Positions 2,689 to 17,182 of a stretch of DNA of 42,643 nucleotides are shown piece by piece. The translations under genes and the position numbers were made by a program. The notes under the pieces were generated by a model that had not been told where the DNA came from, did not search any database, and saw only the letters and a list, made by a program, of their open reading frames with translations. Origin of the DNA: an uncultured Syntrophomonadaceae bacterium. GTDB lineage: Bacteria; Bacillota; Dethiobacteria; PWVN01. The stretch lies in assembly GCA_964541505.1 (NCBI GenBank), contig CAZIRG010000001.1, forward strand, positions 1 to 42,643, written 5' to 3'. The first letter of the stretch is position 1; the number at the start of each line of letters is the position of its first letter.

Positions 2689-2753
2689 TATATAATATCA
2701 CACAAGGGAACTTGATGAAAAGCTGTTTTTTATATCAACGAAGGAGGCATATT

Positions 2754-4220
2754 ATGAGTAAAAAAGAAATCGTCCCTGTTGCCAAAGGTGACGGTATCGG
2801 TCCGGAGATTATGGAAGCTTCCCTGCATGTCTTGCTGGAGGCAGGAGCCCAAATAGAACCTCTATTTGTAGAAATAGGTGAAAAAACATACCGTGCCGGG
2901 TGTACAACCGGCATTACAGATGAAACTTGGCAAATATTGCGGAAGTATAGAGCTTTCTACAAGGCGCCAATCACTACACCACAGGGAAAAGGATACAAAA
3001 GTCTTAACGTTACCATTCGCAAAGCACTCAGTCTCTATGCTAATGTGAGACCTGCTATCAGCTATGAACCCATTATTCCCTCTAAACATCCAGGCATGGA
3101 TATAGTTATTATTCGTGAAAACGAAGAAGACCTCTATGCAGGTATTGAGCACCAACAGACGCCCGAGGTTGTGCAATGCTTAAAACTAATTTCTCGTCCT
3201 GGTTGTGAACGTATTATAAAATACGCCTTTGAGTACGCTCGTGCCTACGGGCGTAAAAAAGTAACCTGCATGACCAAAGATAATATTATGAAACTTTCCG
3301 ATGGTCTTTTCCATAAAGTTTTTGAAGAAATAGCCACTGATTATCCTGACATTCAAAATGAACACTGGATTGTAGATATAGGTATCGCCAAGCTAGCCGA
3401 CACACCCGGTGATTTTGATGTAGTTGTAATGCCAAATCTCTATGGTGATATTGCTTCTGACATGACCGGTCAAATAGCCGGTTCTGTGGGTATCGCTGCT
3501 GGTGCTAATATTGGTAATAACTCTGCCATGTTTGAAGCAATCCATGGTTCTGCCCCACGCCTCGCTGGCCAAAACAAAGCTAACCCTTCTGGACTTCTGC
3601 TTAGCGGTGTCATGATGCTGGTTTATATCAATCAACCTGCTATAGCAGAGCGGGTTCATAATGCCTGGCTTAAAACAATTGAAGATCGTATTTGGACTTA
3701 TGATCTAACTCGTAAAGCCAAATCTGCCCAGAAAACAAACTTCACAGAAGTGGGAACAATGGAATTTGCTAAAGCTGTTGTCATGCGACTGGGGCAAAAA
3801 CCAGAACACCTTAAGCCAGCTGACTATGCTCAAAACATCTCCAACTTTAAAAAACCCCTACTTACCAACGTACGTAATACTGAGATGCAGCTTGATGGTG
3901 TGGATGTTTTCATTTGCAATGGAACATTTTCTGCAAATGAACTTGGTAAAAAGCTTACTCAACTAACTTCCAGTGAACTTCAACTGGTTATGATTACTAA
4001 CCGTGGTCAAAAAGTATATCCCAACGGTTTCCCTGAAACATTTTGTACTGATCACTGGCGTTGCCGTTTCCAGCCAACCGCAGAAAAACAGCAAATTACA
4101 CCTGCTGCTATCCGAAATCTTCTGGAAAAAATAGAGAAAAATAATCTCACCTGGATCAAGATAGAAAACTTGTATCTATTAGACGGACAACGTGCATATA
4201 GCCTTGGTCAGGGTCAATAA
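2754..4220 (+). CDS. icd: Isocitrate dehydrogenase (isocitrate/isopropylmalate dehydrogenase superfamily) with a C-terminal extension of about 140 aa
   Basis: KSLNVTIRKALSLYANVRP, NLYGDIASD and FEAIHGSAPRLAGQNKANPSG are ICDH-type blocks. The start is set at ATG 2754 (MSKKEIVPV), 6 nt after the SD AAGGAGG, rather than the ORF-track start at 2712. Confidence 0.85.
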   Translation: MSKKEIVPVAKGDGIGPEIMEASLHVLLEAGAQIEPLFVEIGEKTYRAGCTTGITDETWQILRKYRAFYKAPITTPQGKGYKSLNVTIRKALSLYANVRPAISYEPIIPSKHPGMDIVIIRENEEDLYAGIEHQQTPEVVQCLKLISRPGCERIIKYAFEYARAYGRKKVTCMTKDNIMKLSDGLFHKVFEEIATDYPDIQNEHWIVDIGIAKLADTPGDFDVVVMPNLYGDIASDMTGQIAGSVGIAAGANIGNNSAMFEAIHGSAPRLAGQNKANPSGLLLSGVMMLVYINQPAIAERVHNAWLKTIEDRIWTYDLTRKAKSAQKTNFTEVGTMEFAKAVVMRLGQKPEHLKPADYAQNISNFKKPLLTNVRNTEMQLDGVDVFICNGTFSANELGKKLTQLTSSELQLVMITNRGQKVYPNGFPETFCTDHWRCRFQPTAEKQQITPAAIRNLLEKIEKNNLTWIKIENLYLLDGQRAYSLGQGQ

Positions 4221-4313
4221 CGATACATATCAGAAAATCCTTCTTTTAATTAAGACCCAAGCAGGAAAATCACTACTCCTTCTTGAATCTTAAACTATCC
4301 GGAGGTGAGATTT

Positions 4314-4586
4314 GTGAGTTTGGAGTTAAAAAATTTAATGGAAGAGGTCGTTACGAGTACTTTGCCAGAAGTTTGGAAAAATATAGACATGTGCAAATGT
4401 GAAAAATGCCGCCTTGATATCATAGCTATAAGTCTTAATCATCTTCCTCCTCGTTATATCGTTTCACAACGAGGCGAAGTTTACTCTCGTACTGATTTTT
4501 TGGTACTGCAAAAGCGTGTTGATATCATGACAGCCGTTTCTAATGCCATCCACATCGTAAAAAAGAACCCCCATCATAAAGAATAA
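4314..4586 (+). CDS. ComFB-family protein (late competence development protein ComFB fold)
   Basis: It has the Cys cluster CKCEKCRLD and the LPPRY block typical of the ComFB family. GTG 4314 lies 8 nt after GGAGG (4301-4305), and the ORF-track start at 4305 is in the same frame. Confidence 0.7.
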   Translation: MSLELKNLMEEVVTSTLPEVWKNIDMCKCEKCRLDIIAISLNHLPPRYIVSQRGEVYSRTDFLVLQKRVDIMTAVSNAIHIVKKNPHHKE

Positions 4587-4659: not shown

Positions 4660-4711
4660 CCCTCTTAAAAAATAGGTGTACCCTAATATCGAAACCAGGA
4701 GAAGATTACTA

Positions 4712-4945
4712 TTGGAAATAAGAAAAATTTTTCGTACTGGTAATAGTCAAGTAATTTCAATTCCCAAAGAAATGTTAAAAAAATTAAATCTGCATGAAGG
4801 CGATCAGGTAGTTTTAGAATTAAAAGATAAAACTATTAACATCTCTCTTCTAGCAGAAAAGTTGTCACAAAAGGACGGTTTTTCACAACAAATAGAAAGT
4901 TTTCTGAAACAATACGAGGAGGTTTTAGAAAAACTAGAAGAATGA
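4712..4945 (+). CDS. AbrB/MazE/SpoVT-type antitoxin
   Basis: GNSQVISIPKEMLKKLNLHEGDQVVLEL is a looped-hinge-helix (SpoVT_AbrB) signature. TTG 4712 lies 9 nt after AGGAGA, and the ORF-track start at 4676 is in the same frame. Its stop overlaps the doc start in an ATGA at 4942-4945. Confidence 0.75.
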   Translation: MEIRKIFRTGNSQVISIPKEMLKKLNLHEGDQVVLELKDKTINISLLAEKLSQKDGFSQQIESFLKQYEEVLEKLEE

Positions 4946-5328
4946 AAGAATTAAACGCAAAGGAAATTCTCTACATTCACTATATTCTAACTCAGAAAAA
5001 AGGACTACCTACGGGTTTAAGAGATATAAAGATGCTAAAAGCAGCTATTTTAAGACCCCACTCCAAGTTCCGCAATAAAGAGCTCTACCCAGATATTTAT
5101 GCTAAAGCTGCGGCTTTGACGCAATTTATAATCTGCGGGCGGCCTTTTAATTCCGCTAATACAGCTACCGGGATAACCATAGGTATTATGCTATTGCAGA
5201 AAAATAATCTTTTGCTGCAAACAACAAAAGAGGAAATGCTGGAAACTGCCAGAAAAATTGCCAATAATAACTTAAATGTAGAGGAATTGGGTCATTGGTT
5301 TAAAAATAATTGCCATAAAGTTTTATAA
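4942..5328 (+). CDS. Doc/Fic-family toxin homologue with a degenerate Fic motif
   Basis: It aligns along its length with phage P1 Doc. P1 GHIFNDANKRTA corresponds here to GRPFNSANTATG, so the catalytic His is Arg and the Lys-Arg pair is Thr-Ala. Confidence 0.75.
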   Translation: MKELNAKEILYIHYILTQKKGLPTGLRDIKMLKAAILRPHSKFRNKELYPDIYAKAAALTQFIICGRPFNSANTATGITIGIMLLQKNNLLLQTTKEEMLETARKIANNNLNVEELGHWFKNNCHKVL

Positions 5329-5784
5329 ATTCTGGGCAACAATCTTAGCTATATCTGAATAGGATATTATCCCCACGAGCTTCTTCTTCTCATTCACTAC
5401 TGGTAGCCTGCGTACATCATTGGCGTACATAATAAAGGCTACTTGTGCAATGGTGTTATCTGGAGCAGCAGAAAATATTTTTCCGCCATGATGAGAAACA
5501 ACAGATGCTACATCCTTTTCTGCTAGGGCTTTAAGTTTCTTTAAGTATTCTTCTTCTTTTTGTGGAAATAATGATGCACTATCACTGCCTATTATTTTTA
5601 TAGCTGAAGGCATGGACCTCTGTACTATATCGGCTTTTGTCACCATCTCAACAACTTCGCTATTCTCATTGACAACAGGTACGCCACTTATCTTATGTTG
5701 CAACATCAACCTTGCTGTTTCCGCCAGTTTGGTAGACATAGTTACTGTTATAACGTTTTTAGTCATTAGTTCTTTGATTAACAT
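5323..5784 (-). CDS. CBS-domain pair protein (stand-alone)
   Basis: Two CBS repeats are visible (MTKNVITV...ISGVPVV and NDVRRLPVVNEKKKLVGIISYSDI). The start is set at ATG 5784, 7 nt after GAGGAGG. Its stop codon overlaps the last sense codon of the convergent doc gene. Confidence 0.8.
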   Translation of the reverse strand: MLIKELMTKNVITVTMSTKLAETARLMLQHKISGVPVVNENSEVVEMVTKADIVQRSMPSAIKIIGSDSASLFPQKEEEYLKKLKALAEKDVASVVSHHGGKIFSAAPDNTIAQVAFIMYANDVRRLPVVNEKKKLVGIISYSDIAKIVAQNL

Positions 5785-5897
5785 AAATCTGCCTCCTCTT
5801 TTTGCTGGTTTTATCTGTTTACATCTTACCATTCTTTCTTTTTAATAGCAATAACAAAAACTCTAAAAAAACTAACTAAACGAGGTGGACCTCTAGC

Positions 5898-7058
5898 ATG
5901 CAAACTATGTACGAAAAAGGCTTAAAGTTTATGAAATACAGTAAAAAAAGAAATCTCTCACAGATTCTCTTTTTATTTATAGCCCTACTTTTTTTTCTCG
6001 CCTACAGGGGAGTAACCAGAGAATATCAAAGGCTAAATCCCATACAAAAAACAGCACAATTATACAATGATATTAATGCAGATGATTTAGTAATCACCAT
6101 AGGAGGAAATTTTAATCCTCGCACCTCTTGGTCCTTTTCTTTATTCTCTCATAACCTTTCTAATGCCCCTCTTTTCTGCCCACATATCACTGAAATCCTG
6201 CTTGCTTCTGATTTGAGGATTCTCTCATTAGCATCTCCCTTTATTTCCGAAAACCTTGTTCCTCTTGATAAATCTCTGGCACTGGGAATATCCTCAAAAA
6301 AAGCTTATTTACTGCAAGAAAATAATATTGATCTGGTGCAAATTTCCGGTAATAATATTTTAGATTTCGGTGTTCTTGGTTTGATTAATACCCTAACTCT
6401 GCTAGATGAGAAAAAAATAGCCGTAACCGGCGCCGGTCTAAACAAAAACGAAGCACTTACACCCTACTATTTTCACAACCCAAACCTTACCCTGGGAATC
6501 GTAAGCCTAAATGCTAACCCTCCTTCTGGTTGGGCAGCAGGAGAAAATCGCTTAGGTGTAGCTACTGCTGACAATGAAACAATTAAAAAACTCTTCTCGG
6601 AAATAAATGAAAAAGCAAATACTGTTTTAGCTTTAGTTTCCTTTGAAGATAGCAACAGTCCCCGTCCTACAAAAACTCAAAGAAATTTTGCTCATGCCCT
6701 GATAAATGCAGGTGCACATATTGTAATCGGTACAGGAGGAAACCTTGTGCAAGAAACAGAATTATATCAGCAAGGTATTATTTTTTATAACCTGGGCAAT
6801 ATCACTCCCTCGCAGGTAAGATTTAGTTATGCTAAAGAATCTATTTTATTGCAAATAATTCTTTCCCCTAGCGGGCAAAAGAGGTTTATTGCTTATCCCC
6901 TTTCCCTTGAAAGTGCCAATACTGAAATGCTCTTTTCAGGAGTACCAGAAAATATTATAAACCAGAAAATATTATGGAGACTACAAGGAGAAGCTCCCTG
7001 GCAAAGAAAAAATAATTTTTATTTCCTTGAATTACCATTTTCTCGCTTGCATTATTAA
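5898..7058 (+). CDS. capA: CapA/PgsA-family (PGA_cap) membrane protein lacking the conserved His residues
   Basis: It has an N-terminal TM helix and is collinear with B. subtilis PgsA (blocks GAGLNKNEA and FYNLGNI). However, GDIMMGR reads GGNFNPR, NNH reads NNI, HWG reads FED and GHHPHV reads GTGGNL. The SD GAGGTGG lies 9 nt before the ATG. Confidence 0.75.
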   Translation: MQTMYEKGLKFMKYSKKRNLSQILFLFIALLFFLAYRGVTREYQRLNPIQKTAQLYNDINADDLVITIGGNFNPRTSWSFSLFSHNLSNAPLFCPHITEILLASDLRILSLASPFISENLVPLDKSLALGISSKKAYLLQENNIDLVQISGNNILDFGVLGLINTLTLLDEKKIAVTGAGLNKNEALTPYYFHNPNLTLGIVSLNANPPSGWAAGENRLGVATADNETIKKLFSEINEKANTVLALVSFEDSNSPRPTKTQRNFAHALINAGAHIVIGTGGNLVQETELYQQGIIFYNLGNITPSQVRFSYAKESILLQIILSPSGQKRFIAYPLSLESANTEMLFSGVPENIINQKILWRLQGEAPWQRKNNFYFLELPFSRLHY

Positions 7059-8771: not shown

Positions 8772-8828
8772 CTCTCTGAAAAGAGCTTAGGAAGGGTCAT
8801 TTTTTAAGAAAACACTGGGGGTGTAGAG

Positions 8829-11390
8829 TTGAAATTTTTTAAAATATGTCTTGTTGTAATTTTCATGTGTTTAACAGCAACAACCCTTTTCTACTTTTTT
8901 TATATTTCACACCATACACACAACCAATTAGAAATTACAGATAAACCACTAGTTCAAGCAGTTATCTTCGGCAAAATCTCCAGAAATGATACCCTTATAA
9001 CTCGTTGGCTAAAAAATTCTAATTTCTCAACTTTATCCCAACTACCTTCTATTAGCAAAGAAATAGTTTCATTAGCTCATTATGAAAACTCTTTTCCTTC
9101 TGCCCGAGAAACAAAAATTTTACAAAAAACAGGACTTTCACTTGTTACTCTTCCTTTTATACCCTTTGAAGATCTACCATATATAGTTGAAGAAAAAATC
9201 ACTGACAAAGTCGAGTTGCAAAGAGATTTAGCAGTTTTGACTTTATGCAAAAAAGAAAACACCCTCCTTTTAAATCTTCCTTTGGACATTTCTTTACAAG
9301 AACTAATAGAAACTATAGCTACCTACAAAGAAACAGCAACACCTCAACTTTTAATCATAAAATTCACTCCCACCGCTCAAACCGACAACGAGAACGAAGA
9401 AAATATTTTTTCCACTAAAGCAAAAGCAGCTGCGGAAGCAGGTGCTCATATAATTATAGGAACCCATACGGCAAACTTGCTACCGCTGGAAGTATATGCA
9501 GATAGCTTGATTATCCCTAGTCTTGACTTTTCCCTAGGAGGAAATAACACTGAAAGTGCTTTTATTCTTTTTACTCTTTATGAAAAAGGCATCACTGTAG
9601 AAGTTCACCCTCTCCGCCTTGCAAACGGACTCCCTCAATCTCTGCATTTACCTTGGCACTATTTTCAAAGCAAACAAATTTTGCAACAAATAGCACCGGC
9701 AAAAGAAGGCTTTCAACCAAAAAGATTTAAATCTGTCTATATTTCCTCCTCCCTTCTACCCCTGCCCGAACCTGTAGAACTAACGGAACCTCTCCTCGAC
9801 CCCATAGAAACACCTCTGGAGAGTGAAAAAAAGCAGGCAGAAAACAACGAAGGAAGATTTGGCGTAGCCGCGGGACATCCTTTGGCTGTAGAAGTAGGAA
9901 TGGAAATACTTCGTGCCGGGGGAAATGCCATAGATGCAGCTGTTGCTGTTTCCTACGCCTTAGCGGTAGTTGAACCGCATGCGTCAGGTTTGGGTGGCGG
10001 TGGCATAATGCTCTTACATCTGGCAGCAGAAAATAAACAAATAGTTATCGATTACCGCGAAACCGCTCCTTTCACTATGGAGCAAGATGAAATCGGAAAA
10101 ATAATGAACTGGCCCAGCACTGGTATTCCGGGTTTTGTAAGAGGCATGGAAAAAGCTTTGGAAAAACATGGCACTATGTCACGTCAGGATGTTTTAACCC
10201 CTGCCCTAAATTTAGCCCGGGATGGTTTTCCTATGTCTGCAGAACTGCATACTAGGGTCAGGCAAAATTCCGGCAAGTTGGCTCGTAGCCAAGAAGCACT
10301 AACTAATTTTTTTCGACGAGGCTGGGCTACTCCTGTAGGTGAAATCATAAAACAACCTGTTTTAGCTCGCACTTTAGAAGCTATTATAAAGGAAGGAAGT
10401 AAAGTTTTCTATGAAGGATATATTGCTGATAGTATTATAAAAGTACTAGCACAGCAAGGAATGCATCTCTCTGCTAACGATTTGGCCAGATACCGGGCTA
10501 TACTTAGAGAGCCTATACAAGGAAATTATCGTGGCTATACTGTACTTACCGTCCCTCCTCCTACCGGCGGCTTCAACCTTTTACAGCAACTAAAAATTTT
10601 GGAGCATTATGACCTAGGAACTTATCAGCAACCAACACCGGAGATATACCATCTTATCCAACAAACAATAAGAGCTGTTTACAGCGACCGCCTCAGTCAT
10701 GTAGGTGATCCTAGATTTGTTTATGTACCCCTAGAGGAACTGCTAAGCGAAGAACATATCCTAGGGAAAATAGACCTAATTGAAAGTGGCGATATACCTA
10801 TGCCCATGTACAGAGATCCTTATCGTCCCTCTGATAACACTACCCATATAGTAGTCCTAGATTCTGCAGGAAACTGGGTCAGTGTAACCAATACTATCAG
10901 CTTTTTCTTTGGTTATGGTCTGCAGGCAGAAGGTTTTTTCCTAAATACCCAACTCAAAAATTTTAGTTCCAACCCCCGTTCCCCCAATTCGTTTCAACCG
11001 GGGAAAAGACCTTTCAGCCATATCAGCCCTACCTTGCTTTTCAAAGATGGTACACCCTTTATGGCACTAGGCACTCCCGGAGGCAGGCGTATTCCTGCTT
11101 ATTTAGCTCAAGTAATAGTGCAATATGTAGATTTTGATGCCAACATTGAGGAAGCCGTAGCAGCTCCTCGCTTCTGGCCAGAAGGCAGAAAACTTTATCT
11201 GGAAAAAGGAATTCCAGATAGAGCCATCTCGTTTTTACTGGAACAAGGTTACCAAATAATAAAACGCAATCCTTCTTTTTTCTTTGGCAGAATCGCTGCT
11301 CTTCATCTGGATTTAGAAACCAACAAACTCACTGGTACAGGTGACCCTCTACGCGGCGAGGGAACCACTTCCCTTGTAGGTGAGCGGTGA
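8829..11390 (+). CDS. Fusion protein with an N-terminal TM helix, a degenerate CapA-like domain, a Pro/Glu-rich linker and a gamma-glutamyltranspeptidase (CapD/GGT) domain
   Basis: The N-terminal part contains AGAHIIIGTHTANLLPLEVY...SLDFSLGGN, which matches the CapA block GADIIVGHHPHVLEPIEVY...SLGNF with the histidines lost. From about 9855 the GGT blocks appear: GHPLAVEVGMEILRAGGNAIDAAVAV, the autoprocessing and nucleophile site DNTTHIVVLD, and GTPGGRRI. Confidence 0.85.
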   Translation: MKFFKICLVVIFMCLTATTLFYFFYISHHTHNQLEITDKPLVQAVIFGKISRNDTLITRWLKNSNFSTLSQLPSISKEIVSLAHYENSFPSARETKILQKTGLSLVTLPFIPFEDLPYIVEEKITDKVELQRDLAVLTLCKKENTLLLNLPLDISLQELIETIATYKETATPQLLIIKFTPTAQTDNENEENIFSTKAKAAAEAGAHIIIGTHTANLLPLEVYADSLIIPSLDFSLGGNNTESAFILFTLYEKGITVEVHPLRLANGLPQSLHLPWHYFQSKQILQQIAPAKEGFQPKRFKSVYISSSLLPLPEPVELTEPLLDPIETPLESEKKQAENNEGRFGVAAGHPLAVEVGMEILRAGGNAIDAAVAVSYALAVVEPHASGLGGGGIMLLHLAAENKQIVIDYRETAPFTMEQDEIGKIMNWPSTGIPGFVRGMEKALEKHGTMSRQDVLTPALNLARDGFPMSAELHTRVRQNSGKLARSQEALTNFFRRGWATPVGEIIKQPVLARTLEAIIKEGSKVFYEGYIADSIIKVLAQQGMHLSANDLARYRAILREPIQGNYRGYTVLTVPPPTGGFNLLQQLKILEHYDLGTYQQPTPEIYHLIQQTIRAVYSDRLSHVGDPRFVYVPLEELLSEEHILGKIDLIESGDIPMPMYRDPYRPSDNTTHIVVLDSAGNWVSVTNTISFFFGYGLQAEGFFLNTQLKNFSSNPRSPNSFQPGKRPFSHISPTLLFKDGTPFMALGTPGGRRIPAYLAQVIVQYVDFDANIEEAVAAPRFWPEGRKLYLEKGIPDRAISFLLEQGYQIIKRNPSFFFGRIAALHLDLETNKLTGTGDPLRGEGTTSLVGER

Positions 11391-11505: not shown

Positions 11506-12180
11506 TTAATCAGAAGGAGCGGAAAATCTTGAGGATAGCAGTTTAAATGCTTTGACAACATCGCTGGCACCAAAAACGGCAGAGCCAGCTACCAGTACAG
11601 TAGCACCAGCTTTCGCAACTTCGGCTGCATTCTCTCGGTTTATACCTCCATCTACTTGTATTTCCAAAGACAAGTTCCTTTTTTCTCTTAATAAGGATAA
11701 CTGCTTTATTTTCGGCAATACTTGGGGAATAAATGCCTGACCACCAAACCCAGGGTTGACAGACATTAGAAGCACCAGATCCAGTTCTTCCAGCACATAG
11801 TCCAGCACAGCAAGAGGTGTCGCTGGGTTCAAAGCCACCCCGACCTGTATTTCAAATTCTTTTATCGCTTGAATTGTCCTATGTAGATGAATACAAGCCT
11901 CGGCATGTACGCAGATAAGATCTGCCCCGGCTGCTGCAAAATCTGCCAGAAAAAAATCTGGGTTTTCAATCATCAGGTGAACATCAAGAAAAAGAGAGGT
12001 TCTTTTTTTGATAGCACTGACTACAGCAGGACCCCAAGTTATGTTGGGCACAAAATGCCCATCCATAACATCAATATGAAGCCAAGAAGCACCTGCTTTT
12101 TCTACTTTTCTGATTTCTTCACCTAGATAAAAAAAATCCGCTGCCAGCAGAGACGGTGCAATGTTGATCGTCAATATCAA
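11506..12180 (-). CDS. rpe: Ribulose-phosphate 3-epimerase
   Basis: The blocks IAPSLLAADF, HIDVMDGHFVPN and VDGG are present. TTG 12180 overlaps the rsgA stop, and an alternative TTG at 12174 has better SD spacing. Confidence 0.9.
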   Translation of the reverse strand: MILTINIAPSLLAADFFYLGEEIRKVEKAGASWLHIDVMDGHFVPNITWGPAVVSAIKKRTSLFLDVHLMIENPDFFLADFAAAGADLICVHAEACIHLHRTIQAIKEFEIQVGVALNPATPLAVLDYVLEELDLVLLMSVNPGFGGQAFIPQVLPKIKQLSLLREKRNLSLEIQVDGGINRENAAEVAKAGATVLVAGSAVFGASDVVKAFKLLSSRFSAPSD

Positions 12181-13064
12181 TAACTCCTTTCCATCTCTTG
12201 TATCTCTTTCAAGATTTGCAAATAATTCTTGTAACGACTGGCTGCAAGCTCTTTTGTACCTGTTTTTTCTCTAACCACGCATCCAGGTTCACTTAGATGA
12301 AGACACTTATTAAACCTGCAGCTAGCAGCAAGCTTGGCAATTTCAGGGAAAAAAAAAGTCAGCTCACTAGAAAGAACTCCTTTCAAAAGCAACTGGCTGA
12401 AGCCAGGAGTATCCGCTACCAGTCCACCACACTCCAGGGGAATCAGTGCTACTTGCCTGGTTGTATGTCGCCCTTTTTTCATTTTTTTGCTTACCAGTCC
12501 TGTTTTAAGTTGCAATCCCGGGAGTAATCTGTTCAACAGGGCAGACTTTCCCGCCCCAGAGGGACCGGCAACGACAGATATCTTTCCTTCCAAAAAGGGC
12601 TTAACTTCTGCTACTCTATCGTTCTGTAAAACACTCATCGTAATAACCTTGTATCCTATATGCTCATAAATAGCCACAATATCCTTAATATCCTGCGCAT
12701 CTGCCGTAGTAACAAGATCTGTTTTATTTAAACACAGCAAAATAGTTAAATAATTTGCCTCTGCTAAAACCAATAACCTGTCCAGTAGAGTCAAGCTTAG
12801 CGGAGGATTTTTAAGCGAAAACAAAATAACAGCTTGTTCTACATTGGCAATGGGGGGTCTGTACAATTCTGTCTGGCGAGGTAATTTTTTTTCAATCATC
12901 TTTTCTGCAAGATTAATTTCAACCCTGTCACCAGCTAAAAACTGCACCCCTTCATTCTTAAAACGTCCCCTAGCCTGGCAGAGAATAGTCGTATCTTTAT
13001 TTAAGTAAACACTAAAAAATCCACCGCCTACTTTTAAGATCAAACCTGACTCCAGCTTTTGCAC
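12177..13064 (-). CDS. rsgA: Ribosome small-subunit-dependent GTPase A
   Basis: It has the circularly permuted GTPase order NKTDL ... GPSGAGKSALLN and the C-terminal zinc knuckle CRFNKCLHLSEPGC. Confidence 0.9.
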   Translation of the reverse strand: MQKLESGLILKVGGGFFSVYLNKDTTILCQARGRFKNEGVQFLAGDRVEINLAEKMIEKKLPRQTELYRPPIANVEQAVILFSLKNPPLSLTLLDRLLVLAEANYLTILLCLNKTDLVTTADAQDIKDIVAIYEHIGYKVITMSVLQNDRVAEVKPFLEGKISVVAGPSGAGKSALLNRLLPGLQLKTGLVSKKMKKGRHTTRQVALIPLECGGLVADTPGFSQLLLKGVLSSELTFFFPEIAKLAASCRFNKCLHLSEPGCVVREKTGTKELAASRYKNYLQILKEIQEMERSY

Positions 13065-13072
13065 ACACCTTT

Positions 13073-14911
13073 CTATTCGGGAAACTCTTTGTGAGCTAAA
13101 ATTTCTTCATTATATATAACTGTTACCTGACCTCTATCATACCCTTCTACGACAATTGGGTTACCCCAATACTCTACTGTCTCTTTCCGCTCACCTCGGA
13201 TATCCGTGATGATTATCTCTACTTTTTCACCCAAAGGTACTCGTTCGGAAGGAATATTAACAGTTATACGATATTTTTTTACGCTGTCCAGATCAGGACC
13301 TATACTAAACGTCAGATCAAGTAAATCACCTTTATACAATGTTTCTCCCGGCTCCGGGAATTGATCAATAACCTGACCTACTGGAGCAAGGTCATTTAAT
13401 TCTGTTACATGACCTAATTTTAAATTGTTGTCAGCAAGCCATTTTTCTGCTTCTTGACGAGTTAAACCACGTAAATCTGCTATTTCTACAGGCTCTGTCC
13501 CCTTGCTAACTACAATAACTACCAAATCACCTTTCATAAGGCGAGAACCTTCTCCTGGACGCTGGCTGATAATCCGTCCGGCATCCACTTCATCACTGAA
13601 AATCTCCTCTTTTTCTACCTCAAAACCAGCCGCCTGCAAGGAAATCCGTGCCTCTATCTCCAACTTTTCCAGAACACCCGGAACTTTAATAAAAGCAGGT
13701 CCGGTACTTAAGATAAACTCTATTTTTCTGACCTGTTGCACCATTCTGCCGGCAAGAGGATTTTGGGAAACAACATAACCAGTAGGAATATCCGAAGACG
13801 AGGCCTGACCAACTACTTCAAAATCAAGACCAACTTCCCGCAATCTGTCAACGGCCTGCTGCAAAGGAAGACCTTCAACTTCAGGCACAGCCACTTCTGG
13901 GGTTGAAAAAAAGTCAGACACCCAGGTATACCCTGCAAAAATTAAACCAGCGAGAAAAACAATAGCAACAAAAACTGCGATCAAGCGAAGCTTGCGTTTA
14001 TTTTTTTTCTGCCGGGAAGAGTTATTATTCCTAGGACGCTGACCATTACTGGCTCTACCATTATATTTATTAGTATAGGAGAAATTCATTTTTAGATGCT
14101 CCTCCAATATCTTCAAATCCTCTTTCAAATCTTTTGCTGTTCTATAACGATCTGCTGGATTTTTTTCTACTGCTTGCATAATTATCTCTTCCAGCTCTAA
14201 AGAAACTTCCGTATTCATTTCTGCCGGGAAAGGAACGTTCTCCTGTATATGTTTCAAAGCTACAGCGACCATATTTTCTCCCGAAAAGGGCACTGTCCCT
14301 GTTAGCATTTCATAGAGCACAATACCCAACGAATAGATATCCGATCTCTCTTCCGCCGGCTTCCCACTGGCCTGTTCGGGAGAAAGATAATGCACAGAAC
14401 CGATAATTGTGCTGGTATAAGTTATAGTTGTGGTTGTAATCCCCCTAGCTATACCAAAATCAGCAACTTTTACCCTCCCTTCGGGAGTTATGAGAATATT
14501 ATGAGGCTTTATATCTCTATGCACGGTATTATGTTTATGTGCTTCTTCTAAGGCCTCACATATCTGAATAGCAATGGAAATCACTTGGGAAGGGGGCAAA
14601 GTTCCTTTTTTAAGAATAAGATCTTTTAGAGTCTGACCGTCAATATATTCCATGACAATATAGTAAAGATTATTTTCTTGACCGACGTCATAAACATTTA
14701 CTATATTGGGGTGGGAAAGATTAGCAGCAGAGAGAGCTTCTCTGCGAAAACTACGTACCAGGTTATTGTCTCCAGTCAGATTTTCTCTGAGAATCTTTAC
14801 AGCTACCGTCCGACCAAGAAGAGTATCCGCTCCTTTATATACTACCGCCATTCCACCTTCACCTATTTTTTCTTGTAGGCGGTACCTTTCTCCCAGTATT
14901 TTACCTATCAT
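13073..14911 (-). CDS. pknB: Ser/Thr protein kinase with a TM helix and three PASTA repeats (PknB/PrkC type)
   Basis: Kinase blocks GEGGMAVVYKG, HRDIKPHNIL and DFGIA are present, followed by a TM helix (LIAVFVAIVFLAGLIF) and repeated PASTA-like units. Confidence 0.9.
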   Translation of the reverse strand: MIGKILGERYRLQEKIGEGGMAVVYKGADTLLGRTVAVKILRENLTGDNNLVRSFRREALSAANLSHPNIVNVYDVGQENNLYYIVMEYIDGQTLKDLILKKGTLPPSQVISIAIQICEALEEAHKHNTVHRDIKPHNILITPEGRVKVADFGIARGITTTTITYTSTIIGSVHYLSPEQASGKPAEERSDIYSLGIVLYEMLTGTVPFSGENMVAVALKHIQENVPFPAEMNTEVSLELEEIIMQAVEKNPADRYRTAKDLKEDLKILEEHLKMNFSYTNKYNGRASNGQRPRNNNSSRQKKNKRKLRLIAVFVAIVFLAGLIFAGYTWVSDFFSTPEVAVPEVEGLPLQQAVDRLREVGLDFEVVGQASSSDIPTGYVVSQNPLAGRMVQQVRKIEFILSTGPAFIKVPGVLEKLEIEARISLQAAGFEVEKEEIFSDEVDAGRIISQRPGEGSRLMKGDLVVIVVSKGTEPVEIADLRGLTRQEAEKWLADNNLKLGHVTELNDLAPVGQVIDQFPEPGETLYKGDLLDLTFSIGPDLDSVKKYRITVNIPSERVPLGEKVEIIITDIRGERKETVEYWGNPIVVEGYDRGQVTVIYNEEILAHKEFPE

Positions 14912-14930
14912 TCATGTCACCTCATAGCCT

Positions 14931-15677
14931 TTATGAAACAGAATTCTGAATCAAAACTACAGTAATATTGTCATGGCCACCCCTATCGTTGGCTGTTGCT
15001 ATCAGATCTTGTATAACTTTTTCTTTACAGGAAACATCTTTAGCTGTTCTAAAAATTTCTTCTTCAGAAAGCAGGTTGGTCAACCCGTCAGTGCAGAGAA
15101 GTAAGGTTTCTCCTAGTTTTAGAGTACCTTTGTAAAAATCAGGTTCGATATGTGGTTCTGTGCCCAGCGCTTTTGTCAAAATATTTCTTTTCGGGTGTGA
15201 GTGCATATCTTGTTTACTAATCTGACCGTTATCCATCATCTCTTTTACCAAAGAATGGTCTCGTGTTAATTGTATAATTCCATCTGGTTTTATTAGATAA
15301 CCCCTACTATCTCCTATCTGCCCTATACAGTATTCTTCCCCAAAAAACAATGCTGCCGTCAGTGTCGTTCCCATTCCCTGCTGCTCCTTTTGACGTAAGG
15401 AAGCTTCCCAGATAAGTGAATTGGCTTTAGCTATCATCCCAGCAAGTGAAACCTGCAGGCTTTTATTTTCAGGCAAATATTCTAAAGTAGCATATTCTTC
15501 TAAGAAATCTCTTTTCATAGAAGTAACAGCCATTTTACTAGCTACTTCACCGGCAGCATGTCCACCCATGCCATCAGCAACCATAAAAAAACAGCAAAGA
15601 GCAGAGGCAAGCATTAAAAAAGAATCCTCATTAATGCTTCTCGCTCTGCCTTTATCTGTTTTACCGTAGTAATACAT
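14931..15677 (-). CDS. stp: PP2C-family Ser/Thr phosphatase (Stp/PrpC)
   Basis: The blocks TDKGRARSINEDSF, ADGMGGHAAGEVAS and GGHDNITVV are present. ATG 15677 is preferred, and an alternative in-frame TTG at 15698 abuts the upstream stop. Confidence 0.88.
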   Translation of the reverse strand: MYYYGKTDKGRARSINEDSFLMLASALCCFFMVADGMGGHAAGEVASKMAVTSMKRDFLEEYATLEYLPENKSLQVSLAGMIAKANSLIWEASLRQKEQQGMGTTLTAALFFGEEYCIGQIGDSRGYLIKPDGIIQLTRDHSLVKEMMDNGQISKQDMHSHPKRNILTKALGTEPHIEPDFYKGTLKLGETLLLCTDGLTNLLSEEEIFRTAKDVSCKEKVIQDLIATANDRGGHDNITVVLIQNSVS

Positions 15678-15698
15678 AAAACTTTCAGCTCCAGTCAA

Positions 15699-16409
15699 TC
15701 AGTCTCTGCGACCTCTGATTAAAAGCATCCTCAAAAGCTGTGCGAGTGCAGCTGCCATGGCAGCAACGTAAGTAAGGGCAGCAGCATTAAGAACCTGGCG
15801 TACCCCTCCTGCTTCACTCTGTTGAAGAAAACCTCCTCCCTCCAATAAAGCCACAGCCCGACTAGAAGCATTTAATTCAACAGGTAAGGTAGCAATCTGA
15901 AAAAGAACAGCAAAAAAATAAAGAATTATACCAATATCCATCATGGTTCCCCCTACACCAGAGAAAAAAAAGCCCATAAAAAACAACGGCATAGCTAGGC
16001 GAGAACCAAGACTGGCCACAGGAAACAGGTTGTTTCTGAACATTAAAAAAAAGTAGCCTTGTGCATCCTGCATGGCGTGACCCGTTTCGTGCGCAGCTAT
16101 ACCAAGAGCAGCAATAGAAGGAGTATTATAAACTTCTGGAGAAAGACGTATTACTTTCTTACGAGGATCGTAATGGTCGTCTAAAACCCCTCGGGTCATT
16201 TCAACGGACACTTCATGGATCCCAGCTTGGTCTAAAAGACGCCGGGCAACATTTGCTCCCGTCATATTACCTTTTGTTCGTATACGAGAAAATTTGTGGT
16301 AAGTTTTCTTTACTTTGTTCTGAGCATAAAAAACAAAAATAAATACTGGTATCATCAGAAATATCGTACTGTCAAAAAAAGTTCCCAGAAAAAAAGAACC
16401 TGGTATCAT
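15699..16409 (-). CDS. Putative neutral zinc metallopeptidase (YugP-like membrane protein)
   Basis: It has the HExxH motif AAHETGHAMQ and flanking TM helices. Its start overlaps the DUF116 stop by 4 nt. Confidence 0.8.
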   Translation of the reverse strand: MIPGSFFLGTFFDSTIFLMIPVFIFVFYAQNKVKKTYHKFSRIRTKGNMTGANVARRLLDQAGIHEVSVEMTRGVLDDHYDPRKKVIRLSPEVYNTPSIAALGIAAHETGHAMQDAQGYFFLMFRNNLFPVASLGSRLAMPLFFMGFFFSGVGGTMMDIGIILYFFAVLFQIATLPVELNASSRAVALLEGGGFLQQSEAGGVRQVLNAAALTYVAAMAAALAQLLRMLLIRGRRD

Positions 16410-17182
16410 TCTTTTAATTTCCCTCCTAAAAATCTATTTATTGCTTCTTCCAATTTGACCGTATTCACCCTGGTATTATAGCACGGACCAGCTGGTCTGT
16501 CATTAATAATCCCATAGACAGGCACCGGGCTGCTGTCTATTATACCACTATTCAAGTCACGTTCACAAGCCACCGCTAAAATAACCTGAGGCTTATGTTC
16601 CTTGACGGCTTGCCTGGCCAACGTTCCTCCTGTAACAACTTCTATCGCCACCTTATATTTTGTTGCCATCCGAGAGAGTGAACTTATATCACAATTTCCA
16701 CAGTGAAGGCAATTGGAAATATTCCTGGTCAGTTTATGGGGACAGTCATCTTTTTGTAGGCAGTGAGGCAATAAAATCAATAAATCTTCCGGAGAAACCG
16801 AAGTTTTTTTGCTTTCTACTAACTTATTATTTACTTCCACAAAGGAAATTTGGATATGTTCTTGCGTAATCTTTAAAATCCTGCCTATCTGAATAACAAA
16901 AGGATATAAAATGTTCATTGTCCGATAAACAGGCATTTGGAAAAAAGAAACGTTTCTACCTCGTAGTATAGACCAAACAAGTCCTACCATACCTACAGCA
17001 GCCAAAATAGTTAATATCAATAAGAGTATTATAACAATCATGAATATAACCCTATAGATATATTCCTGAGCAAAAGCCACTCTCCAAAGATAATAAATCA
17101 AACCAACAAATAAAAGAATACTAAGCGCCATCAAGCCTATAAAAACCCGCTTCCCGGATTTCGTCGTTTTTATTGCTTTCAT
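16406..17182 (-). CDS. DUF116-family Cys-rich membrane protein
   Basis: It has N-terminal TM helices, the Cys cluster CLQKDDCPHK...CLHCGNC and a position directly after fmt, as in many Clostridia. The family assignment is by recollection, not by search. Confidence 0.65.
   Translation of the reverse strand: MKAIKTTKSGKRVFIGLMALSILLFVGLIYYLWRVAFAQEYIYRVIFMIVIILLLILTILAAVGMVGLVWSILRGRNVSFFQMPVYRTMNILYPFVIQIGRILKITQEHIQISFVEVNNKLVESKKTSVSPEDLLILLPHCLQKDDCPHKLTRNISNCLHCGNCDISSLSRMATKYKVAIEVVTGGTLARQAVKEHKPQVILAVACERDLNSGIIDSSPVPVYGIINDRPAGPCYNTRVNTVKLEEAINRFLGGKLKE

Follow-up and report, generated by a model that had tools for sequence, protein, structure and literature searches.

The 42,643-nt stretch analysed here (the window), positions 1 to 42,643 of contig CAZIRG010000001.1 from an uncultured Syntrophomonadaceae bacterium, carries a cassette of four same-strand genes for poly-γ-glutamate (PGA) in the order capA-pgsB-pgsC-(capA'-capD). 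The last of these encodes a protein that joins a degenerate CapA-like domain (CapA') to a complete γ-glutamyltranspeptidase (GGT) of the CapD type, and this fusion is the subject of what follows. Its open reading frame (8829..11390) runs from a TTG start through 853 codons to its stop codon and is open throughout, with no internal stop; the coordinates and the length of 853 aa agree with a preliminary description made from the DNA letters. The starts of the homologues fall at the equivalent position and, read directly from the sequence, a GGGGG run at 8817-8821 stands 7 nt 5' of the TTG. The features of the cassette and of the fusion are collected in Table 1.

The layout given in the preliminary description also holds. 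The transmembrane helix that it saw at the N-terminus is a hydrophobic helix in both AlphaFold2 (AF2) models, and the Pro/Glu-rich linker that it put at about 9742-9850 is found at nt 9744-9857. Lysines at positions 2 and 5, before the helix, suggest that the protein would sit N-in, with everything past residue 27 outside the membrane. The linker differs in sequence and in length among the homologues, from about 15 to 45 residues. Its fast evolution, with a ratio of non-synonymous to synonymous substitution rates (dN/dS) of about 1.6 over 38 codons between the window and its closest relative (L007), is commonly seen in tethers that are free of constraint. The AF2 model of the full-length protein had a mean predicted local distance difference test score (pLDDT) of 65, with a poor small subunit, and was kept out of the fold search and of any claim about domain packing.

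Table 1. Features of the PGA cassette and of the CapA'-CapD fusion; positions are those of the window.
Feature	Position	Strand	Basis
Stand-alone CapA/PgsA-type gene, 386 aa, first of the cassette	5898..7058	+	PF09587, E 2.7e-33
pgsB/capB, poly-γ-glutamate synthase ligase subunit, 405 aa	7079..8296	+	TIGR04012 poly_gGlu_PgsB, E 5e-98, above cutoff
pgsC/capC, membrane subunit, 149 aa	8297..8746	+	TIGR04011, E 6e-36; PF14102, E 5e-33
Shine-Dalgarno-like GGGGGTG	8817..8823	+	Sequence reading
N-terminal transmembrane anchor, aa 2-27	8832..8909	+	Hydrophobic helix in both AF2 models; present in all homologues
Degenerate CapA-like domain (PGA_cap, calcineurin-like fold), aa ~38-305	8940..9743	+	Profiles, alignment, AF2/Foldseek
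Pro/Glu-rich disordered linker, aa 306-343	9744..9857	+	Translation SSSLLPLPEPVELTEPLLDPIETPLESEKKQAENNEGR; pLDDT <50 in both AF2 models
GGT part forming the large subunit, aa 344-670, including R410	9858..10838	+	Pfam/TIGRFAM, alignments
Thr671 codon, predicted autoprocessing site and catalytic nucleophile	10839..10841	+	Translation PSDN/TTH; aligns with small-chain residue 1
Small-subunit part, aa 671-853, with T689, S691, Q708, N711, G751-G752	10839..11387	+	Alignments

The fusion is not peculiar to this assembly. The protein database contains 10 other full-length homologues (P0002-P0011; 821-850 aa, 47-87% identity, at least 95% query coverage), and all 11 proteins align end to end in the same domain order of transmembrane helix, N-terminal domain, variable linker and GGT. 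The homologues were found in assemblies made independently of one another (NCBI, JGI, ENA and Logan), and one source is a closed 3.56-Mb genome, that of Candidatus Contubernalis alkaliaceticus (CP054699). L007 is 85% identical to the window and collinear through the linker. The preliminary description had worried that a frameshift or a missed stop at about 9740-9860 might have been overlooked, which would make the fusion a sequencing or assembly error that joined two genes. On that side stands one 967-nt metagenome contig (L022), where a stop interrupts a related N-domain reading frame within its linker. The reading frame in the window is continuous, however, and neither ten further full-length fusions from independent projects and assemblers, a closed genome among them, nor the collinearity with L007 across the linker would be expected of an artefact. 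The chance of a merged gene is negligible, and we reject it for practical purposes. On L022 itself (1-967), the N-domain-type protein (P0121) ends with TGA within the linker and an ATG follows 9 nt downstream; on so short a contig, either a natural split or an error in sequencing may be the explanation.

In a scan of one genome per species, fusions occurred only in metagenome-assembled genomes labelled Dethiobacter, 'Syntrophomonadaceae' and Bacillota. Dethiobacter and Contubernalis both belong to the Dethiobacteraceae, and the fusion homologues all fall in or near that family. No further protein with PGA_cap followed by GGT was present among the best 150 of the 1301 matches to the N-domain profile described below. 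The public databases label the fusion proteins merely 'gamma-glutamyltransferase', and in the literature we found no paper describing a CapA-like/CapD fusion. The component families, CapD-type GGT and the PGA_cap fold, are known, and it is their combination that is new. The fusion is real, has apparently not been described before and is shared by the members of a small family of bacteria from alkaline habitats.

By sequence, the C-terminal module is a complete N-terminal nucleophile (Ntn) hydrolase (MEROPS T03), a γ-glutamyltransferase of the CapD type. PF01019 (G_glu_transpept) matches residues 359-842 with E 1e-128 and 430 bits (cutoff 27), covering positions 2 to 510 of the 512 in the profile, and TIGR00066 scores 414.9 bits, above its cutoff of 357.85. 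In the junction PSDN/TTHIVVLD, Thr671 aligns with the first residue of the small-subunit chain in all solved GGT and CapD structures, in agreement with the full GGT and autoprocessing Thr (DNTTHIVVLD) first reported. By alignment, T671 is the nucleophile Thr, T689 the assisting Thr, G751-G752 the oxyanion Gly-Gly and R410 the carboxylate-binding Arg; we take T689, G751-G752 and R410 to be the equivalents of T409, G483-G484 and R114 of E. coli GGT (PDB 2DBU). Those equivalences are consistent with published accounts (PMC4568574, PMC8062742). Cleavage before Thr671 would, as a necessary consequence, leave the CapA-like module on the large subunit, as the preliminary description had also proposed.

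The assignment to the CapD type, likewise proposed at the outset, is supported by the donor-site signature, the missing lid loop, the small-subunit match, the gene context and, on small sampling, the grouping in a tree. In the window and at the related loci the gene comes directly after pgsC. Where the E. coli- and C. jejuni-type proteins P0077 and P0087 have the lid loop, the alignment shows a gap of 10 residues in the fusion, as it does in the CapD-like P0117. In the alignments to PDB chains on which the CapD residue comparisons rest, the donor site S691/Q708/N711 is the S/Q/N of CapD, whereas Bacillus GGT has E/E/D and the E. coli type N/(Q or E)/D. The window protein reads TNTIS...NTQLKNF where CapD (3g9k_S) reads TNTLS...NNQLQNF and Bacillus GGT TTTIE...NNELTDF. 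N411 and D433 of E. coli GGT, which hold the donor by its free α-amino group, are replaced here by S691 and N711, as they are in CapD. The best solved match of the small subunit is the CapD chain 3g9k_S, at 111.9 bits, with the next at 101.7. In a neighbour-joining (NJ) tree of 21 sequences, based on distances only, with 500 bootstraps and containing no PGA-degrading GGT from Bacillus, the clade groups with the CapD-like P0117 and P0052 at 100%; P0117 is a 'capsular biosynthesis protein' from B. cereus.

The same enzyme could instead be mainly a PGA hydrolase, serving trimming, release or nutrient recovery as described for the Ggt of B. subtilis and B. licheniformis, and no wall-anchoring transpeptidase. 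The role of the CapA-like module would then be to hold a depolymerase next to the synthase, so that chain length is controlled. For the whole precursor, the score to B. licheniformis GGT (318.8 bits) is the same as that of the summed CapD chains (212 + 107), and the large chains of Bacillus GGTs score a little above that of CapD. Lid-less GGTs have been described as PGA degraders, and CapD also depolymerises (PMC8062742). Against a hydrolase of the Bacillus kind, S691/Q708/N711 fits CapD and not the E/E/D of Bacillus GGT, the protein is membrane-anchored and not secreted, the gene lies within a synthesis operon as capD does, and the proteins join the CapD-like ones with 100% bootstrap support. 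We consider a mainly hydrolytic enzyme somewhat unlikely.

Three GGTs of about 940 aa (P0043, P0046 and P0053), in which the Pfam match is split in two, appear to carry a large insert between the GGT halves. P0043 and P0046 were considered as PGA_cap fusions and rejected, having this internal insert instead.

That some 300 residues at the N-terminus resemble CapA had been noticed in the preliminary description, and searches with family profiles, hhalign and Foldseek establish the homology: the N-terminal domain has the CapA/PgsA fold (PGA_cap, calcineurin-like). Pfam PGA_cap matches 10 of the 11 family N-domains, at best with E 9.4e-9, and P0004, P0005, P0009 and P0011 carry a precomputed PF09587 match, which the locus tables, where they list it, mark as 'weak'. 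A profile built from the 11 N-domains gave 1301 matches at E<=1e-3 among 1.84 billion proteins, and those of the top non-self matches that were checked (E 2e-14 to 2e-10) all proved to be genuine PGA_cap proteins, at Pfam E values of 1e-51 to 1e-110. When the N-domains were aligned with five canonical PGA_cap members, hhalign returned a probability of 99.1% and E 7e-19 over 257 columns, which is the whole domain. As the N-domain profile found no significant match among PDB sequences (MslH, E 0.12), a fold search was needed. With the AF2 model of the N-domain (pLDDT 74.8, predicted template-modelling score 0.73) the best Foldseek match was MslH, at E 2e-7 and a template-modelling score of 0.51-0.54, followed by the calcineurin-like 1T71, YmdB and Vps29. 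MslH is, to our knowledge, the only solved structure of the PgsA/CapA family.

We also considered whether the N-domain is a recent duplicate of the neighbouring capA, and rejected this. BLASTP between the N-domain and the stand-alone CapA of the window gives only a 35-aa match (E 6e-4), uninformative alone. On the N-domain profile, canonical PGA_cap proteins score 57-70 bits and the stand-alone CapAs of the clade 20-31 bits, and the hhalign result for the stand-alone CapAs is E 1e-9 over 130 columns, against 7e-19 over 257 for the canonical members, with the caveat that the canonical set consists of the best matches of the same N-domain profile.

Judged by alignment, the domain has lost its metal-binding residues and its His/Asp catalytic residues, yet it is under purifying selection. 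In MslH the catalytic dyads are His88/Asp91 and His295/Asp11, and the Ca(II) ligands are Glu44, Asn87, His259 and His261 (PMC10406935). We compared motifs on a MAFFT alignment, with the roles of the residues taken from that structure paper. Canonical PGA_cap members keep the metallophosphoesterase-type motifs. In the window protein the GD motif (MslH D11) reads GK, and G[KEDNS] in the family. NxE (E44) reads HYEN, and H-Y-x-N in the family; the Glu is not conserved, and the window keeps one (E86) at the Glu44 position. A 17-residue deletion, the same throughout the family, has removed ANNH..D (N87, H88, D91) and left TLPF in the window. HWG (H259) reads KF, with K178 invariant in the family, and GHHPH (H292, H295) reads GTHTA, the family keeping only H213 and never a His at the H295 position. 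The preliminary description had spoken of lost histidines, which was right but understated: H213 is kept, yet GD and HWG are altered and the ANNH..D segment is deleted altogether.

What stands at the ancestral motif positions now is not random. In the 11 fusion N-domains, H84, Y85, N87, K178, F179 and H213 vary hardly or not at all, and among the columns of the domain 26 are invariant and a further 16 nearly so. Between the window and L007, dN/dS is 0.36 for the fused N-domain, 0.07 for the large-subunit part of the GGT, 0.24 for the small-subunit part and 0.25 for the stand-alone CapA. A ratio well below 1, together with invariant replacements, argues for a maintained pseudo-enzyme and not for debris. 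A decaying remnant, now serving as a mere stalk or spacer, is very improbable. It would account for the low conservation of the N-domain, the lowest in the protein (lineages share 27-40% identity here and about 60-68% in the GGT domain), for a dN/dS above that of the GGT large subunit, for the deleted NNH segment and for the loss of the domain in the lineages of P0012 and P0013. It does not sit well with a dN/dS well below 1 beside a linker at about 1.6, with so many conserved columns, with a confidently predicted fold, or with the retention of the domain as the sole PGA_cap module of the cassette in L009 and L019.

The stand-alone CapA of the operon, though PGA_cap-positive, is by the same kind of comparison without most of the catalytic and metal residues. 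In a direct alignment with MslH it has N153 for H88, V for H259, F for H261 and T/N for H292/H295 (IGTGGN), and keeps only N87 and D91 of the MslH residues; by MAFFT, D11 is replaced by G and E44 by A. The CapA orthologues of L001, L002, L004 and L005 have undergone the same losses, and the canonical PGA_cap protein P0128 keeps NNH..D, HWG and HPH. NF038314, the model for the MslH-type peptide epimerase, scores 59.8 bits on the stand-alone CapA against a cutoff of 700. Feng et al. proposed CapA as the PGA epimerase (PMC8179263); with CapA stripped in this way, the operon would under that idea be left without an epimerase.

The four-gene cassette is found in nine lineages (the window, L007, L001, L021, L002/3/11, L008, L012, L023 and L024). 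In two others, L009 (5134-9388, encoding P0009) and L019 (6303-10466, encoding P0011), the cassette is pgsB-pgsC-fusion with flgM directly upstream and without a stand-alone capA, leaving the fused domain as its only PGA_cap module. P0009 and P0011 form a pair with 100% support in the NJ tree. The N-domains of L009 and L019 retain a more canonical GHH motif (IGHHPQ and VGHHRQ). The reciprocal arrangement, in which capA-pgsB-pgsC precedes a GGT of 560-600 aa that is not fused, occurs with the same flagellar synteny for P0012 (L004 4054-5853, and L010) and P0013 (L005 6118-7803). These unfused proteins nest inside a fused subclade with 99% support, P0012 as the sister of the fused P0005 at 91%, and in P0012 both ends of the N-terminal region survive on either side of an in-frame gap of about 235 aa: the transmembrane helix and the first strand before it, the C-terminal tail of the N-domain after it. 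Their nesting and these vestiges indicate that the fused domain was lost secondarily. In the sister pair P0014 and P0015 (L025 3785-7345 and L006 6108-9701), pgsB-pgsC is divergent from an unfused GGT and stands beside chemotaxis genes. At the base of the clade, competing splits that put the fusion first or the stand-alone capA first have bootstrap values of 40% and 39%. The reciprocal absence of the two A modules among relatives suggests that their roles overlap, and in the L009 and L019 lineages the fused domain may act as a CapA equivalent, more than as a docking relic.

The N-terminal domain might alternatively work independently of the synthase, as a module that binds polymer or wall in the manner of a carbohydrate-binding module. 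Its former cleft, putatively lined by H84, N87, K178 and H213, would then take up polyanionic PGA, or peptidoglycan, and present it to the tethered enzyme. New and (nearly) invariant residues at the ancestral motif positions (H84, Y85, N87, K178, F179 and H213) are more than simple drift would leave, and PGA_cap is fused to peptidoglycan enzymes elsewhere, to Peptidase_S11 and YkuD (P0124, P0152). The equivalent cleft of MslH binds the C-terminal carboxylate of a peptide (PMC10406935). Its reciprocal presence and absence with stand-alone capA nevertheless fits a CapA-equivalent role better, and we regard a binding module of this sort as improbable.

Some smaller features of these loci are worth recording. 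A 39-aa open reading frame just upstream of pgsB in L006 might encode a PgsE/CapE-like peptide. The capA beside the fusion P0004 is called in two pieces (93 + 219 aa) in L020 (5162-6279) and is intact, with 371 aa, in L021 (5165-6280); the split gene could be a pseudogene or an assembly error. Genes for ComFB (4305-4586), a MazE-type antitoxin (4676-4945) and a Fic/Doc toxin (4942-5328) accompany the PGA cassette in L001, L002 and L005, and a CBS-domain gene (5323-5832, minus strand) stands between the Fic/Doc group and capA in the window and in L007. In the relatives the cassette lies beside flgM-flgN-flgK-flgL-fliW-csrA, and in the window between icd and rpe-rsgA-prkC (PASTA kinase)-PP2C phosphatase (2712-4220, 11506-17182). 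These differing flanks suggest that the cassette has moved as a unit. The window (1-42643) contains no tRNA genes and gives no Rfam match at the gathering threshold.

Taken together, the evidence leads us to favour a membrane-anchored protein of two modules, in which CapA' holds a CapD-type enzyme at the PgsBC synthase, and we put the probability of this overall picture at roughly 55%. A single-pass, N-in anchor would place both modules on the extracytoplasmic side. The precursor would cleave itself before Thr671, leaving the transmembrane helix, CapA', the linker and the large subunit as one chain, to which the small subunit of 183 aa would stay non-covalently bound. CapA' would be non-catalytic and would take or share the structural place of CapA at the PgsB-PgsC synthase, possibly pairing with the stand-alone CapA, with the MslH dimer as an analogy. 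MslH functions as a dimer with its substrate cleft at the interface (PMC10406935). Docking of the fusion onto the CapBC/PgsBC synthase, raised as a possibility in the preliminary description, is a plausible hypothesis. It would hold the transpeptidase where nascent PGA emerges, the flexible linker giving it reach. Thr671 would form a γ-glutamyl-enzyme intermediate with PGA, and the chain would then go either to an amine of the cell wall, which would anchor it in the manner of Bacillus anthracis CapD, or to water, for release or trimming.

Several observations weigh against this picture. The N-domain of the window itself falls below the Pfam gathering score for PGA_cap (16.3-18.2 bits against 27; E 0.007 and 0.002). 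For the large subunit the solved Bacillus GGTs score slightly above CapD, 226 against 212 bits, so that the CapD assignment rests on the small subunit, the signature residues, the gene context and an NJ tree of limited sampling. The fused domain is dispensable, at least with capA present. Finally, there is no PGA_cap gene within about 8 kb at the P0014 and P0015 loci (L025 and L006), so an A module is either not obligatory in the cassette or encoded elsewhere.

The picture of a synthase-docked enzyme can be extended to both A modules, as a scaffold. The premise would be that CapA and CapA', which both lack the His/Asp dyads of MslH, are both without catalysis. They would sit on PgsBC as a CapA/CapA' heterodimer, channelling the nascent polymer straight to the tethered CapD for fixation to the wall. 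The polymer would be homochiral, a poly-γ-L-glutamate that, as a wall-fixed acidic secondary polymer, would aid the Dethiobacteraceae at high pH. The wall of the alkaliphilic Bacillus halodurans C-125 contains just such a homochiral poly-γ-L-glutamate. As a joint claim, all its parts included, this is doubtful, and we offer it tentatively. If true, it would make the clade a natural experiment that separates the scaffold role of CapA from its proposed catalysis, with the reciprocal losses of the A modules showing which parts are needed.

That a CapA-type and a CapD module occur as a conserved natural fusion counts as 'Rosetta-stone' evidence for their acting next to each other, and it hints at a physical link between the synthesis of the polymer and its processing. 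CapA/PgsA has been described as an exporter or an aid to elongation and, in newer work, as a candidate epimerase (PMC8179263). Here both A modules lack the MslH-type residues, both are under selection and either one may be missing in relatives, which offers a system for studying the structural role of CapA. The same clade allows the question of whether the conserved metal site of CapA matters for polymer chirality. The named members of the Dethiobacter and Contubernalis type are alkaliphiles. Wall-bound polyglutamate has been linked to pH homeostasis in alkaliphilic Bacillus (PMC4453477), and one may speculate that it is relevant to the alkaline life of the fusion carriers. The practical payoff is modest: the fusion is a lead for capsule and PGA biochemistry and no new kind of system.

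Among known systems, the closest comparison for the enzyme is CapD of Bacillus anthracis (PDB 3G9K/3GA9), encoded in the capBCADE operon, which anchors and depolymerises the capsule. The fusion has in common with it the GGT-family Ntn-hydrolase module, the nucleophile Thr at the junction, the absence of a lid loop, the S/Q/N donor site, an N-terminal membrane anchor and a gene in a PGA synthesis operon. CapD has about 530 aa and no CapA-like domain, whereas the fusion carries about 300 extra residues, a PGA_cap fold and linker, between anchor and enzyme. Identity to CapD is only about 37%, and the gene order is A-B-C-(A'D) against B-C-A-D-E; we noticed no CapE/PgsE-like gene in the cassette of the window, where no systematic search for one was made.

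The N-terminal part compares with CapA/PgsA (PF09587), the third subunit of the PgsBCA/CapBCA synthase, which likewise has an N-terminal transmembrane anchor followed by an extracytoplasmic calcineurin-like domain. The two share the motif region GA-x-[IV]-[IV]-G ... Y ... L-G and align profile to profile over the whole domain. The fused domain differs in lacking GD, NxE, NNH..D, HWG and HHPH, in two internal deletions of about 16-17 aa and in being joined to an enzyme. Its best structural match, MslH, is a lasso-peptide C-terminal epimerase (PDB 8GQ9/8ITG), and the dyads and Ca(II) ligands of MslH are absent or not conserved in the fused N-domain family. In function, the domain may resemble Vps29 and other catalytically inactive calcineurin-fold scaffolds, whose metallophosphoesterase fold lacks a working metal site and serves to contact other proteins. 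Vps29 is among the fold matches of the N-domain, with no specific sequence relationship, and the likeness would be a functional one only.

PGA_cap is joined to wall enzymes in other proteins as well. Peptidase_S11 with PGA_cap (P0124) and YkuD with Peptidase_S11 and PGA_cap (P0152) likewise have an extracytoplasmic partner of the transpeptidase or carboxypeptidase type. They differ from the fusion described here in that their PGA_cap domains are canonical (E 1e-73 to 1e-110) and C-terminal to the enzyme, and in that the partner is not a GGT. Across P0124, P0152, P0131 and P0127, canonical PGA_cap is fused to Peptidase_S11 (D-Ala-D-Ala carboxypeptidase), YkuD (L,D-transpeptidase) or Memo, or is duplicated in tandem. 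PGA_cap seems to have been paired repeatedly with peptidoglycan enzymes.

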